Assembly (NCBI GenBank): GCA_963771735.1
Contig: CAVYUN010000004.1
Location: forward strand, 81,454-145,453
Length of the DNA stretch: 64,000 nt
DNA from: an uncultured Pseudomonadota bacterium
GTDB lineage: Bacteria; Pseudomonadota; Gammaproteobacteria; Xanthomonadales; Rhodanobacteraceae
Direction: 5' to 3'
Shown here in pieces: positions 36,164-63,630 of this stretch. Each line of letters begins with the position of its first letter. Within the stretch, counting starts at the first letter, position 1. A program made the position numbers and the translations under genes. A model generated the notes under the pieces. It worked only from the letters and a program-made list of their open reading frames with translations. It had not been told where the DNA came from and searched no databases.

Positions 36164-36271
36164 TTTGTGCGATCGTCCCTGATCGCTGCTTCGTTCAAGC
36201 CCGAAGGATGTGCTGCAACCACGGGTAAACGGCATCAGAACGGCCTTCCATGGCCTGACTTTCCACAACAG
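36164..36271 (+). repeat. r-protein-spacer structured repeat, copy A (rplJ|rplL)
   Basis: tttgt-gcgatcgtccctgatcgc (hairpin 1, 36169-36186) ... catcagaacggccttccatggcctgactttc (36233-36263) cacaacag. The ends ctgtttgtg/cacaacag are complementary. Confidence 0.8.
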
Positions 36272-36308
36272 CTCAATCAACCTTTCAACGTTTCAGGAGT
36301 CAAACAAC

Positions 36309-36689
36309 ATGTCACTCAGCAATGAAGACATCATCGAAGCCATCTCGTCCAAGACCCTCGTCGAGGTGATGGAGCTGGTCAAGGCGATGGAAGACAAGTT
36401 CGGCGTGTCCGCCGCGGCCCCGGTGGCCGTGGCCGCCGCTCCGGCCGCTGGTGGCGGCGCTGCCGCCGCCGAAGAGAAGACCGAATTCAACGTCGTGCTG
36501 GCCGCGATCGGCGAGAAGAAGGTCGAAGTGATCAAGGCCGTGCGCGCGATCACCGGTCTGGGCCTCAAGGAGGCCAAGGATCTGGTCGAGGGCGCACCGC
36601 AGACCGTCAAGGAAGGCGCCAGCAAGGAAGACGCCGAGAAGTTCAAGAAGGATCTGGAAGCGGCCGGTGCCAAGGTCGAGTTGAAGTGA
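36309..36689 (+). CDS. rplL: 50S ribosomal protein L7/L12
   Basis: 126 aa. Ala-rich hinge; [27 protein letters not shown]. Confidence 0.98.
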
Positions 36690-36990
36690 GTGCGGGACGC
36701 GCTCACCCCGGACAGTACATGGACGTACGTTGATCCGGGGTCCAGTGTCTTTGATGACTAGCAATGGCACTGGATTCCCGCCTCGGCGGGAATGACGAAC
36801 AAGCCTGGGGGCAAGTGCCCCCGGGCTTTCGCCGTTGCAGCGAAGTTGCAAAAAACAGTTTGAGTTGCTCACAAGAAGTAGCAGCAGAGGGCGTGCTGGT
36901 GCCGGCAATACCAGCGACTTCCCAAGTGACAGCTCCACCACGTTTCCCGGCCGCGAGCGGCCGATGTCCACGAACGAGGCGGTAGCATCC

Positions 36991-39900
36991 ATGACGACCT
37001 ATTCCTTCACCGAAAAGAAGCGCATCCGCAAGGATTTCGGCAAGCGCCCGCCGGTACTCGGCGTACCCAATTTGCTGACTATCCAGACCGATTCCTACGA
37101 GGGTTTCCTGCAGGCGGGCATCGCGCCCGGAGAGCGCAGGGAGATCGGCCTCGAGGCCGCCCTGAAGTCCGTGTTCCCGATCAAGAGCCATTCCGGCAAC
37201 GCGGAGCTGGAATACGTCAGCTATCACTTCGGTGAGCCCGCGTTCGACGAGCGCGAGTGCCGCCAGCGCGGCATGAGCTATGGCGCGCCGCTGCGCGTCA
37301 AGGTCCGCCTGGTCATCTACGACAAGGACAGCCCGGCTTCCAAGAAGGTGCCAAAGCTGGTGAAGGAGCAGGAAGTCTACATGGGCGAGATCCCGCTCAT
37401 GACCGAGACCGGCACCTTCATCGTGAACGGCACCGAGCGCGTGATCGTTTCGCAGCTGCATCGCTCGCCCGGCGTGTTCTTCGATCACGACAAGGGCAAG
37501 CAGCACAGCTCCGGGAAGCTGCTGTTCAATGCACGCGTGATTCCGTACCGCGGCTCCTGGCTCGATTTCGAGTTCGATCCCAAGGAAGTTCTGTTCACGC
37601 GCATCGACCGTCGCCGCAAGCTGCCGGTGACGATCCTTTTGCGTGCGCTCGGTTATACCAACGAGGAGATGCTGGACATCTTCTTCGAACACAACGTGTT
37701 CCATCTCGGCAAGGAAGGCCATGCCGAGCTGGCGCTGGTGCCGGAGCGCCTGCGCGGCGAGACACTCAATTTCGACCTTGTCGCTGGCAACAAGGTGCTG
37801 GTCGAGAAGGACAAGCGCATCACCGCGCGCCATGTGCGCGAGTTGAACAATGCCAAGGTCACCTCGCTCGAGGTACCTGACGATTACATGGTCGGGCGCA
37901 TCCTCGCGACCGACGTCGTCGACGAGAAGACGGGCGAATTGCTGGCATCGGCCAACGACGAGCTGACCGTCGAACTGATCGAAGCTTTCCGCAAGGCCGG
38001 CATCGACACCATCGTCACCCTGTTCGTCAACGATCTCGATCGCGGTCCTTACATCTCCAACACCCTGCGCGTCGACCCGACCCACACCCAGTTGGAGGCG
38101 CTGGTCGAGATTTACCGCATGATGCGTCCGGGCGAGCCGCCGACCAAGGAGGCCGCGCAGAACCTTTTCAACAACCTGTTCTTCACCTTCGAGCGCTACG
38201 ACCTGTCCACGGTCGGCCGCATGAAGTTCAACCGCCGCGTCGGCCGCTCGGAAGTGACCGGCCCGGCAGTGTTGTACGACCAGAAATACTTCTCGAGCCG
38301 CAAGGATGAAGAGGCGGCCCGGTTGGTCGCCGAGCAGGGCGATACTTCCGACATCCTCGATGTGCTCAAGGTGCTGATCGAGATCAAGAACGGCCACGGC
38401 ACGGTCGACGACATCGATCACCTCGGCAACCGCCGCGTGCGCAGCGTGGGCGAGATGGCAGAGAACGCCTTCCGCATCGGACTGGTGCGCGTCGAGCGGG
38501 CGGTCAAGGAGCGCCTGTCGCTGGCCGAGGCCGACAACCTCGGTCCGCAGGATCTGATCAATGCCAAGCCGGTCGCGGCGGCGGTCAAGGAATTCTTCGG
38601 TTCCTCGCAGCTGTCGCAGTTCATGGACCAAAACAACCCGCTATCGGAGGTGACCCACAAGCGCCGCGTGTCGGCACTGGGGCCGGGCGGCCTCACCCGC
38701 GAGCGTGCCGGATTCGAGGTGCGCGACGTGCATCCGACCCACTACGGACGCGTGTGCACCATCGAGACCCCGGAAGGTCCGAACATCGGCCTGATCAACT
38801 CGCTGGCCGTGTACGCACGCACCAACAAGTACGGGTTCCTCGAGACGCCGTACCGCAAGGTGGTGAACAGCAAGGTCACCGATGACGTGGACTACCTCTC
38901 GGCCATCGAGGAAGGCGAGTTCGTGATCGCGCAGGCCAACTCACCGCTCGACAAGCACGGCAAGTTCACCGAGGAGTTCGTGTCCTGCCGCTTCAAGGGC
39001 GAGTCCGAATTGCGTCCGCCGTCCGACATCAATTACATGGACGTGTCGCCGATGCAGACCGTGTCGGTGGCCGCGGCGCTGGTGCCGTTCCTTGAACATG
39101 ACGATGCCAACCGCGCGCTGATGGGCGCCAACATGCAGCGCCAGGCCGTGCCGACGTTGCGTTCCGAGAAGCCGCTGGTCGGCACCGGCATCGAGCGCGC
39201 CGTGGCGCGTGATTCCGGCGTCACCATCGCGGCGCGCCGCGGCGGCGTCATCGACCAGGTCGACGCCGCGCGCATCGTGGTGCGCGTGAACGAAAAGGAA
39301 GTCGGCGAGAACGATCCGGGCGTGGACATCTACACACTCACCAAGTACACGCGTTCCAACCAGAGCACCGATCTCAACCAGCGTCCGCTGGTGAACGTTG
39401 GCGACAAGGTGGCCAAGGGCGATACCCTCGCCGACGGTTCCTCGACCGACCTCGGTGAACTGGCGCTGGGCCAGAACATGCTGGTCGCGTTCATGCCGTG
39501 GAACGGTTACAACTTCGAGGACTCGGTGCTGCTGTCCGAGCGCGTGCTGAAGGAAGACCGCTACACCTCGATCCACATCGAGGAGCTGACCTGCCAGGCG
39601 CGCGACACCAAGCTCGGCCCCGAGGAAATCACCGCCGACATCCCGAACGTGGGCGAGCAGGCGCTGAATCGCCTCGACAAGTCGGGCATCGTCTACATCG
39701 GCGCGGAAGTGAAGGTCGGCGACATCCTGGTCGGCAAGGTCACGCCCAAGGGCGAGAGCCAGCTGACACCGGAAGAGAAGCTGCTGCGTGCGATCTTCGG
39801 CGAGAAAGCGTCCGACGTGAAGGACAGCTCGTTGCGTGTGCCGCCCGGAATGGACGGCACCGTGATCGACGTGCAGGTTTTCACCCGTGACGGGATCGAA

Positions 39901-62353: not shown

Positions 62354-62491
62354 GGCGTCGCAGCCGGCGCGTTCCGACCATTCGGCCGGAACAGCGCCAC
62401 CGACGCGAACCGGGCGGCGTGGCCGCCCGGCGAGGAACCATCGGAGCCCGAATCCTGCGCGGCTCCACCAGTGATATTCCGGAGTTAGCCC

Positions 62492-63490
62492 ATGGCAGTC
62501 TCTTCCACCCACGTCCTGCGTCCACGCGGCCTCAAGGTCGAGCCGGTCGGTCCCAACCATGCCCGGGTCGTCGTCGAACCGCTGGAGCGCGGTTACGGCC
62601 ACACACTCGGCAATGCGCTGCGGCGCGTCCTGCTGTCGTCGATCGCCGGTGCGGCCATCGTCGAGGCCGAGATCGACGGCGTGCTGCATGAATACACGAC
62701 GCTGGAAGGTTTGCAGGAAGACGTGATCGAGCTTCTGCTGAACCTCAAGGGCGTCGCCATCCGCCTCAACGGCGTCGACGAGGCCAACCTCAGCCTGTCC
62801 CGCAAGGGCAAGGGCGTGGTCACGGCTGGCGACATCACCGTCGACCACACGGTCGAGATCGTCAATCCCGAGCACGTGATTTGCCACCTGACCAAGGACG
62901 TCACGCTCAACATGCGCCTCAAGGCCAAGCGTGGCATCGGCTACCAGCCGGCCGTGAACCGCACCAATCCGGACGAGGAAACGCGTGCGATCGGCCGTCT
63001 GCAAATCGACGCCTCGTTTTGTCCGGTGCGCCGCGTGGCCTATTCGGTCGACGCCGCGCGCGTGGAACAGCGCACCAACCTCGACAAGCTGATCCTGGAC
63101 GTCGAGACCAACGGCACGGTCGCGGTCGACGAAGCGGTGCGCCAGGCCGCCGAGACCCTGCACGACCAGTTGTCCGTGTTCGGCGATTTCAAGAGCCGCG
63201 AGACCACCGAGTCCGAGAAGGACAAAGCCGGCATTTCGCCGCTGCTGCTGCGGCCGATCGACGACCTGGAACTCACCGTGCGGTCGGCCAACTGCCTCAA
63301 GGCCGAGAGCATCTACTACATCGGCGACCTGGTGCAGAAGACCGAGGTCGAGTTGTTGAAGACCCCGAATCTCGGCAAGAAGTCGCTGACCGAGATCAAG
63401 GACGTGCTCGGCGCCAAGGGCCTCGCGCTCGGCACCAAGCTGGAAAACTGGCCGCCGGCCGGGATTTCCAGCGGCATGCAACTTGGTTGA
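62492..63490 (+). CDS. rpoA: DNA-directed RNA polymerase subunit alpha
   Basis: 332 aa. [17 protein letters not shown]; C-terminal domain [22 protein letters not shown]. Confidence 0.99.
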
Positions 63491-63525
63491 GGCTGGGGGC
63501 GTCCCTGCGTTCAAACCACCGTGTG

Positions 63526-63630
63526 TTTATTTTTGCGATCATCCATGATCGCTGCGTAATGAACCGTTCTGGTGCTTGCACGGGTCAGGCGTTTCAAAGC
63601 ACCAGAATGGGCTTCCTGCCCTGACTTTTC
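63526..63630 (+). repeat. r-protein-spacer structured repeat, copy C (rpoA|rplQ)
   Basis: tttattttt + gcgatcatccatgatcgc (63535-63552); central 11-bp hairpin ttctggtgctt/aagcaccagaa (63567-63607); caccagaatgggcttcctgccctgacttttc (63600-63630). Confidence 0.8.

Follow-up and report, generated by a model that had tools for sequence, protein, structure and literature searches.

A dispersed two-hairpin intergenic repeat of Rhodanobacteraceae occupies spacers in ribosomal-protein operons

We analysed a 64,000-nt stretch of DNA from an uncultured Rhodanobacteraceae bacterium (contig CAVYUN010000004.1 of assembly GCA_963771735.1, positions 81,454 to 145,453; hereafter the window). Three look-alike copies of an element of about 110 bases, here called A, B and C, lie in it between ribosomal-protein genes. 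The element belongs to a high-copy dispersed intergenic repeat family of Rhodanobacteraceae and neighbouring Lysobacterales. Repeat copies account for much of the extra length in the spacers of the window's ribosomal-protein operons, where they are ordinary insertions into intercistronic spacers and not an operon-specific regulator. We consider it probable that the family is a mosaic repeat akin to repetitive extragenic palindromic (REP) sequences and bacterial interspersed mosaic elements (BIMEs), and that it spreads, or once did, as DNA to the 3' flanks of genes, is co-transcribed with them and may act at the RNA level.

All three copies are real and share one orientation, with the positions and architecture given in the original prediction, a note made from the window's sequence. 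Copy A (36161..36281, + strand) occupies the rplJ|rplL spacer and is matched by an iterated nhmmer profile at 36158-36273. It consists of a T-rich lead (36161-36168), hairpin 1 (36169-36186, GCGATC-GTCCCT-GATCGC), an unstructured spacer (36187-36232), module 2 with hairpin 3 (36242-36255, GGCC-TTCCAT-GGCC) and a tail, CTGACTTTCCACAACAGC, which runs up to about 36276. Copy B (58138..58259, +) lies in the rplR|rpsE spacer, with a T8 run, hairpin 1 at 58146-58163, hairpin 3 at 58220-58233 and the tail CTGACTTTTCGAAAAAAC. Copy C (63527..63637, +) lies in the rpoA|rplQ spacer, with hairpin 1 at 63535-63552 (loop ATCCAT), hairpin 3 at 63609-63621 (GGGC-TTCCT-GCCC) and the tail CTGACTTTTCACCAAAAG. 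Its middle forms a hairpin of 12-14 bp that is peculiar to this copy. All three are of the long form, and the element extends 3' into a conserved tail, CACAACAGCCGCTTCG. Their host spacers measure 170-171, 213 and 249 nt. Module 2 was predicted to stand at a fixed distance from hairpin 1; remeasured from the start of that hairpin as far as CAGAA, this distance is 67, 68 and 68 nt in copies A, B and C. The hairpin-1 pattern GCGATCRTCCNTGATCGC has three exact matches in the window; with up to three mismatches there are eight, against 1.3 expected, and none of 100 shuffles reaches eight. The module 2 pattern CAGAAYGGSCTTCCNNGSCCTGACTTT is exact in copies A and B, with 0 expected, and copy C carries a compensated GGGC/GCCC stem with a 5-nt loop. 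The ends of copy A are complementary, as had been noticed, but with one bulge (CTGTTTGTG versus CACAACAG).

A further, short-form copy lies reversed in the tuf|rpsJ spacer (49969..50040, -). It comprises a hairpin resembling hairpin 1 (50034-50017, GCCGTC-CTCCCT-GACGGC), the linker AAAGAAGCAA, hairpin 3 (50006-49991, CCGGC-ATCCAT-GCCGG) and the family tail ACTTTTCACAACAGCCGCTTCG (49990-49969). A short-form profile run over the window gave no additional copies.

Across the family, the unit is built of a T-run, hairpin 1 (GCGATC-RTCCNT-GATCGC), a fixed-length spacer of about 55 nt, hairpin 3 (GGCC-WTCCAT-GGCC) and the tail CTGACTTTTCACAACAGCCGCTTCG. Long-form copies have the consensus (stop)TTTGT-GCGATC-RTCCNT-GATCGC-TGCTTCG, a variable stretch of about 45 nt and finally ACACCAGAACGGCC-WTCCAT-GGCCTGACTTTTCACAACAGCCGCTTCG. 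In a second subfamily hairpin 3 is GCGGCC-ATCCAT-GGCCGC, followed by ACTTTTCAA. A short form of about 60 nt has both hairpins linked by GAGAATCAAAAA (about 12 nt). Hairpins 1 and 3 stand in the same (direct) orientation and have related stems, GCGATC and GCGGCC. The loops are nearly always UCCN, closed by R-U. In the sample seeded with module 2, a TCC-loop hairpin is found upstream in 116 of the 128 matches listed, and in 95 of these 116 it lies at 48-50 nt. For the TCC loop, 176 perfect 6-bp hairpins were counted; control loops gave 3-7. Nested variants of hairpin 3 (GGCCATGGAGC-CGCC-ATCCAT-GGCC-AAGAGCTCCGTGGCC) form a longer hairpin with ATCCAT still at its tip; they are seen in the collection loci L072 (5600-5747), L009 (570-717), L062 (6382-6517), L083 (5461-5595), L146 and L226.

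The predicted covariation of hairpin 3 is borne out and extends to both hairpins, whose stems covary while their loops stay constant. Among 100 copies picked via module 2, 94.8% of the cells are paired. Compensatory cells number 40 against 4.0 ± 1.8 in shuffles, and none of 500 shuffles reaches 40. Two-sided changes occur in three pairs of hairpin 1 and in two pairs of hairpin 3. RNAalifold recovers hairpins 1 and 3 only, with no consensus fold in the middle. The middle keeps its length at 54-58 nt; compared with dinucleotide shuffles, 48 middles show no surplus of structure (mean z = -0.2, p = 0.17). Self-complementarity of this segment, which had been proposed for every copy, holds for copy C (z = -2.4, significant) but not for copy A (z = -0.9), copy B (z = +0.2) or the family. 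A fourth hairpin, comparable to one that adjoins copy C (63638..63653), can be formed from the tail in about half of the family members. We also considered a terminal stem TTTGT/ACAAC and rejected it, as just 56% of its cells are paired.

The extent of the family was assessed by two independent collection scans. The first covered one genome per species and was seeded with hairpin 1 (GCGATCRTCCNTGATCGC), giving at least 118 stretches; the second covered metagenome contigs and was seeded with module 2 (CCAGAACGNNCNTCCNTGNNCTGAC), giving at least 120. All counts from both scans hold among the matches listed, and genes in the collection loci were called with a crude caller based on GC content at third codon positions (GC3). 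Nearly all matches of the first scan fall in Rhodanobacteraceae, in Rudaea, Dokdonella, Frateuria, Dyella and Rhodanobacter, and the remaining ones are chance matches inside genes of unrelated phyla. An iterated profile on the loci of the first scan yields 168 matches in 127 clusters. The flanks of these loci hold 23 extra clusters in 658 kb, or about one per 29 kb, and the flanks from the second scan hold 65 extra clusters in 888 kb, or about one per 14 kb. In total there are more than 300 clusters in Rhodanobacteraceae and relatives, 310 of which were examined for neighbours. A blastn search of a plasmid collection with the consensus gave no match. An Rfam scan of the whole window reports only four tRNAs, and permissive scans of the three spacers give no meaningful match on the element, in line with the expectation that it has no named Rfam family. 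Nor did Rfam 15, the classification of GTAG and CGTC REPs or our literature searches on Rhodanobacter and Xanthomonadaceae repeats yield any description of it.

The original prediction tied the element to operons of the translation machinery, where it might act in processing, attenuation or stability. With three to four copies in spacers of translation genes, the window itself invites the idea of a regulator specific to ribosomal-protein and RNA-polymerase operons, and several species have copies at rpoA|rplQ, rplR|rpsE and rpsK|rpsD and after rpsR, rpsT and rpmJ. The census does not uphold this tie. In the independent metagenome sample, large ribosomal-protein operons hold one of 184 clusters. 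The upstream genes are varied and mostly unrelated to translation; they include those for riboflavin synthase, GcvT, DUF498 proteins, CoxI, AtpG, CspA, S20, L36, GroEL, SSB, Map, XerD, RpoH and FtsH, and tRNA genes. The ribosomal share looks higher in the genome scan because that scan sampled one set of orthologous sites repeatedly, in many species. Many copies thus lie genome-wide with no ribosomal-operon bias, which is what the original prediction had expected of an ordinary dispersed repeat. A link to highly expressed genes in general was also tried and not upheld: the codon adaptation index of upstream genes is only marginally higher (0.640 versus 0.618), with no excess in the top decile.

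Comparison with related genomes points the same way. We compared the S10-spc-alpha region of four relatives, L001-L004, whose SecY is 87-93% identical to that of the window; the best match to this SecY has 95% identity, and those relatives that bear names belong to Rhodanobacteraceae. An exact-protein look-up of the window's RplL gave no record. At the rplR|rpsE site of copy B, the repeat is present in L001 and L004 and absent in L003. At rpoA|rplQ, L001 carries a tandem pair of copies, L003 a single reversed copy and L004, with a spacer of 84 nt, no copy. L004 has extra sites at rpsK|rpsD and after rpsR, and L003 has extra sites at rpsM|rpsK and at rpsC|rplP, the latter as three reversed short units. 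Because presence differs site by site among four genomes with 87-95% identical SecY, occupied sites change between close species. With copies missing at rpoA|rplQ in L004 and at rplR|rpsE in L003, and reversed at rpoA|rplQ in L003, we regard a regulator dedicated to these operons as most improbable.

What most copies do share is their placement relative to genes. Between co-directional genes, sense orientation is found in 61 of 77 cases in the first scan (61:16, p = 2e-7) and in 80 of 104 in the second (80:24, p = 3e-8). Both orientations occur inside single 8-kb loci, each matching its neighbour gene, so the orientation bias tracks transcription and not replication. Where a same-strand gene lies within 400 nt upstream, its stop codon ends no more than 10 nt from hairpin 1 in 49 of 74 copies (scan 1) and 37 of 42 copies (scan 2). 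About half of all copies sit 0-10 nt past a true stop codon or directly behind the 3' end of a tRNA, and several begin 7-9 nt past the tRNA CCA end. The stop triplets 5' of the element stand at a variable 0-5 nt, and the only fixed base is a T at -1 (103 of 109). Copies remote from gene ends mostly have no stop triplet nearby, which indicates that the triplet is a real stop codon and not a part of the element. For the same reason, we rejected the stop triplet as a transposition target.

In 9 of the 49 and 10 of the 37 stop-adjacent cases, the host open reading frame (ORF) enters hairpin 1 and stops at its TGA, ending in ...Cys-Asp-Arg-Pro. Such repeat-encoded C-termini (Cys-Asp-Arg/His-Pro) are seen in L005, L009, L010, L027, L047, L091, L102, L116 and L119 and in 10 metagenome loci. 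The proteins that end in repeat-encoded residues include a riboflavin synthase, a DUF498 protein and a TetR regulator.

On the reading that we favour, the repeat is spreading, or has spread in the past, as DNA to sites directly 3' of genes, and it would be co-transcribed with the upstream gene, as its location, orientation and operon position suggest. The transcript would then carry a pair of stable 3'-proximal hairpins flanked by the U-rich single strands UUUGU and CUGACUUUUC. By analogy with REPs and BIMEs, these hairpins could block 3'-exonucleases at the stop codon and protect the ORF, or could mark sites of endonucleolytic processing. In E. coli, REPs have been shown to act in 3'-exonuclease protection or as processing sites. 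Most REPs are situated downstream of coding regions, and a role as RNA elements is attributed to them (PMC3733652).

A position after stop codons and tRNA genes is also the usual place of a terminator. Hairpin 3 plus CUGACUUUUCACAAC might then serve as an intrinsic terminator, as an attenuator or as an antitermination signal of the boxA kind: a U-rich stretch follows hairpin 3, and the second subfamily has a 6-bp GC stem followed by ACUUUUC. The tail matches GCUCUUUAACAA, which we take to be the E. coli boxA, at 8 of 12 positions, but this resemblance is short. We think each of these very unlikely. An intrinsic terminator calls for a GC-rich stem of 5 bp or more with a U-run right behind it; the long-form stem has just 4 bp and the U-run begins 5 nt later. 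The terminator scan flags neither hairpin 1 nor hairpin 3, terminator-like sites in the window are no commoner than in shuffles, and over 57000-64000 the scan reports only an extra hairpin, GCTCG-CTTCGA-CGAGC (63638..63653, +), which adjoins copy C, is terminator-like on both strands and is common to L001. Copies lie inside essential operons (rplJ-rplL, rplR-rpsE), and in L091 a separate canonical terminator follows the element.

The spread of the repeat as DNA draws on several features. Head-to-tail arrays of two to four units are common. Middles are unrelated between loci, even in one genome, with the exceptions of arrays and one pair in L091. The two members of this pair, 93% identical over 137 nt, adjoin the ends of two separate genes and point in opposite directions, each sense to its own gene. 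Their left boundary is TTT-GCGATC and their right boundary GGCCGC-ACTTTTCAA, about 9 nt past hairpin 3, with no target duplication. Tandem arrays, the short form, gain and loss of sites and the near-identical pair together indicate, as far as sequence can, that the element is or was mobile. The original prediction had offered a mobile element, like a miniature transposable element with inverted repeats (MITE) or a BIME, as one option. Dispersal, arrays, presence differences and the L091 pair support it, although the terminal inverted repeats and target-site duplications of a MITE are not found.

One could further ask whether the element moves as single-stranded DNA, carried as a non-autonomous passenger by an HUH tyrosine transposase, either a REP-associated tyrosine transposase (RAYT) or an IS200/IS605-like enzyme. 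The two same-strand subterminal hairpins would be its left and right ends. This proposal concerns the spread and is compatible with the REP/BIME-like reading. The hairpins do have the same strand, the same loop and related stems, much as we understand the left-end and right-end hairpins of IS608 to be; the L091 unit ends about 9 nt past hairpin 3 with neither inverted repeat nor duplication; the element is strand-specific; and compensated stems would suit an enzyme that recognises structure. On the other side, tblastn, a motif filter and clustering of flanking proteins gave no Y1/HUH gene in about 1.9 Mb around the 310 clusters. The tblastn queries, approximate TnpA sequences of IS608 and IS200, had no match in the sampled DNA. 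Nor did we find a genuine case of a lone hairpin 1 with a distant lone module 2, the layout of an autonomous element. No conserved tetra- or pentanucleotide target precedes the element, and its orientation follows the neighbour gene, whereas replication-coupled transposition of single-stranded DNA predicts a constant strand. Movement by an HUH enzyme is therefore, in our judgement, rather unlikely. The 526 flanking proteins were clustered, and the recurrent ones are, by Pfam, M23/M48 peptidases, LpxC, AcpH, an AFG1 ATPase, an MFS transporter, Der and BamB. Each is the product of an ordinary gene that lies at orthologous sites.

Several points weigh against the REP/BIME-like reading. The same searches found neither a transposase nor a recurrent partner gene beside the 310 clusters, and neither the L091 pair nor the terminal pairing of 56% gives evidence of a target-site duplication or a terminal inverted repeat. 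The copy number, roughly 100-300 per 4-Mb genome, is extrapolated from the flank densities and is not a count from complete genomes. Most copies appear old, with unrelated middles within one genome yet conserved ends. Purely selfish spread suits this combination less well than gene conversion or a function at the level of the host. A simple exonuclease block needs no conserved loops, and hairpins 1 and 3 are not scored as intrinsic terminators in the scan of 57000-64000. Finally, every effect of the repeat at the RNA level is one that we infer.

A different account has the repeat as a domesticated cis-acting RNA module. Its two UCCN hairpins would form a bipartite site for a dimeric RNA-binding protein or RNase, placed at the stop codons of hundreds of genes and after tRNAs, and the family would be a genome-wide post-transcriptional signal and not junk. 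The loops are conserved in both hairpins, both subfamilies and the nested variants while the stems covary, and the spacing is fixed within 1 nt although the middle is neutral. At orthologous sites, module 2 is 77% identical between pairs, the middle 48% and the downstream flank 56%; among clear orthologues module 2 reaches 88% and the middle 71%. Because module 2 is more identical than the middle at these sites, the ends are constrained or homogenised while the middle drifts at about the pace of the DNA that flanks it. The strong sense and stop-codon bias, with a stop triplet that is no intrinsic target motif, and the lack of a transposase beside the 310 clusters also suit such a module. But gene conversion could equally keep the ends alike, and a candidate protein partner is lacking. 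About one-fifth of the clusters between co-directional genes are antisense, and one-third to one-half of the copies lie off gene ends. Site occupancy varies between close species, and no single copy looks essential. We give domestication a minor share of the probability. Slightly less likely still is its elaboration into a 3'-end module, in which the dimeric protein or RNase would set mRNA 3' ends, keep the stop codon on trimmed mRNAs or tune translation termination, and reversed copies would present perfect CsrA/RsmA hexaloops and couple some operons to the Rsm system.

The opposite strand offers another potential function. In reversed copies the loops become C-ANGGAY-G hexaloops, the form of the high-affinity CsrA/RsmA site, which might bind or titrate CsrA/RsmA. 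RTCCNT in reverse complement reads ANGGAY, with a closing C-G pair and with U and A on its flanks, and the variable loop position falls on the N of ANGGA. This loop fits (A/U)CANGGANG(U/A), which we take to be the RsmE-hcnA consensus. Reversed copies do bring GGA loops to the mRNA, at rpsC|rplP and rpoA|rplQ in L003 and at 49969-50040 in the window, and an RsmA sponge derived from a 3' untranslated region (UTR), RsmU, is known in Xanthomonas (PMC7694677). Against this, the mRNA carries UCC and not GGA for copies A-C and for 77-79% of the copies between co-directional genes, and a promoter for antisense transcription was looked for and not found. Wobble asymmetry, used as a strand test, favours neither strand, with G.U versus A.C counts of 16 versus 23 in a noisy scan and 9 versus 8 in a clean alignment. 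The Rsm/Csr models of Rfam miss the copies and give only sub-threshold matches nearby. That the family serves CsrA/RsmA seems to us quite improbable.

One of these sub-threshold matches is to RsmY and lies directly past the rplL stop codon (36681-36795, +; 21.9 bits versus a gathering threshold of 57, E = 0.001). The segment holds the GGA-loop hairpins GCG-GGA-CGC and GUAC-AUGGAC-GUAC, followed by a REP hairpin, and could be an rplL-rpoB attenuator region. The second of the GGA-loop hairpins is a family-type TCC-loop hairpin on the opposite strand. This possible remnant or relative of the repeat (36706..36740, -) is GTAC-GTCCAT-GTAC within a longer hairpin, CCCCGGA...TCCGGGG, 17 nt past the rplL stop codon, with the loop reading AUGGAC on the mRNA strand; the assignment is weak, with only loop and hairpin to go by. 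The REP hairpin in the same rplL|rpoB spacer is a canonical, dRS3-like, CGTC-tagged REP (36774-36793, with tag and tail on the minus strand at about 36770-36797). Its sequence is CGTC-ATTCCCGCC-GAGG-CGGGAAT-CCA, and also CGTC-ATTCCCGCC...GGCGGGAAT-CCA. It is distinct from the family studied here and has two more copies in 242 loci.

Other features in the window touch on the family less closely. A lone hairpin 1 (GCGATC-GTTCCT-GATCGC; 18423..18440, +) lies 5 nt past the stop codon of a 363-aa ORF (17326-18417) and is not accompanied by module 2. A possible degenerate module 2, a weak candidate, is found in the rpoC|rpsL spacer (45495..45530, -; CACGAA-GCGC-TTCCGT-GCGC-CTCATTTCGA). The rpsN|rpsH spacer (56703-56805) and the secY|rpsM spacer (60787-60902) are long and variable, with 89-213 and 114-210 nt across four genomes, and neither matches the repeat family in the window, L001, L003 or L004; rpmJ is absent between secY and rpsM. 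Just 5' of rpsE, a two-hairpin segment of about 70 nt (58246-58316, +) consists of GCGGCTTGATGCCGC and GCCCGCATCTCGCGGGC, then AAGGTGAAAACAATG. It is kept in all four related genomes whether the repeat is present or not, matches nothing in Rfam and could be a leader of rpsE.

The repeat explains why several normally tight spacers are long in the window's ribosomal-protein and RNA-polymerase operons and removes the idea of a new ribosomal regulator. It also puts a defined repeat family on record for Rhodanobacter, Dyella and their relatives, a group that is important in the environment. Its unusual traits are the same-orientation hairpins with an invariant loop, the neutral spacer of fixed length, the placement against real stop codons and the fact that it now and then provides host genes with their last four codons and stop codon. 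Copies will mislead gene callers at C-termini and in spacers, and they will inflate counts of conserved intergenic RNA candidates. Since the ends are constrained and no transposase is in sight, the family is a clean system for the question of whether REP-like elements are parasites or tools of the host. Its stop-codon placement, invariant loops and absent transposase make it worth experiment.

Among known systems, the CsrB/RsmY/RsmZ sponges also have multiple hairpins; the opposite-strand loops of the repeat match their ANGGA motif, and RsmU of Xanthomonas is likewise derived from a 3' UTR (PMC7694677). The repeat differs from them in presenting UCC in most transcripts, in matching no Rfam model and in having hundreds of copies, compared with one to three genes. 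With the IS200/IS605-derived PATEs it shares two subterminal same-strand hairpins, strand specificity and the lack of terminal inverted repeats and target-site duplications. Unlike PATEs, it has no conserved 4-5 nt target on the 5' side and no TnpA or TnpB found nearby, and its orientation follows local transcription. It differs from MITEs in having no terminal inverted repeat (TTTGT/ACAAC, 56% paired) and no target-site duplication in the L091 pair. Mycobacterial interspersed repetitive units (MIRUs), BOX and ERIC/RU elements are units of 40-130 nt in the intergenic parts of operons, placed in gene sense, with tandem arrays and with ends that overlap stop codons or add codons. The repeat resembles them in unit size, sense placement, arrays and overlap with stop codons or added codons. 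Its sequence is unrelated to theirs; MIRUs are not made of two hairpins with a common loop, and ERIC/RU elements are long imperfect palindromes with terminal inverted repeats.

The repeat and the CGTC REPs (dRS3, RPE-4, RPE-6) are both palindromic, both have some copies within the ends of genes, and neither is known to have a transposase of its own. The CGTC REPs have a stem of 8-9 bp starting with AT, a loop of 4-5 nt, a terminal CGTC tag and a CCA tail; most of them form head-to-head dimers (PMC3733652). The stems of the studied repeat have 6 bp (GCGATC) or 4-6 bp (GGCC, GCGGCC), its loops are RTCCNT, and it has neither the CGTC tag nor a CCA tail. No GTAG is present in the consensus of 48 or of 100 copies, in contrast to the GTAG REPs, whose imperfect palindromes of 20-40 nt carry this tetranucleotide at one end; the 5' side reads T(G/T)ATTTGT and the 3' side TGC. 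While REP units are commonly paired in inversion as REPIN doublets, the hairpins here are direct, a fixed 48-50 nt apart, and the arrays run head-to-tail. Unlike REPs, the repeat also combines short stems of 4-6 bp with a conserved UCCN loop and a fixed neutral spacer of about 55 nt. No RAYT, as known from RAYT-linked REPs, was found among the 526 proteins beside the 310 clusters or by tblastn or motif filter in the sampled loci. With REPs and BIMEs as a class (GTAG REPs, REPINs), the repeat shares GC-rich hairpins in high copy number that are extragenic but transcribed, or presumably so in the repeat, and lie mostly downstream of genes or between the genes of operons (PMC3733652). It further shares mosaics with linkers, clusters, arrays, species-specific subfamilies, compensated stems and a proposed role as 3' hairpins of RNA (PMC3733652). 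At about one copy per 14-29 kb, the family is intergenic and sense-biased, has long, short and nested forms and arrays, and is presumably transcribed, given its position in operons; these are the traits of the BIME-like class. It is best read as a previously undescribed family that behaves like BIME or MIRU elements.

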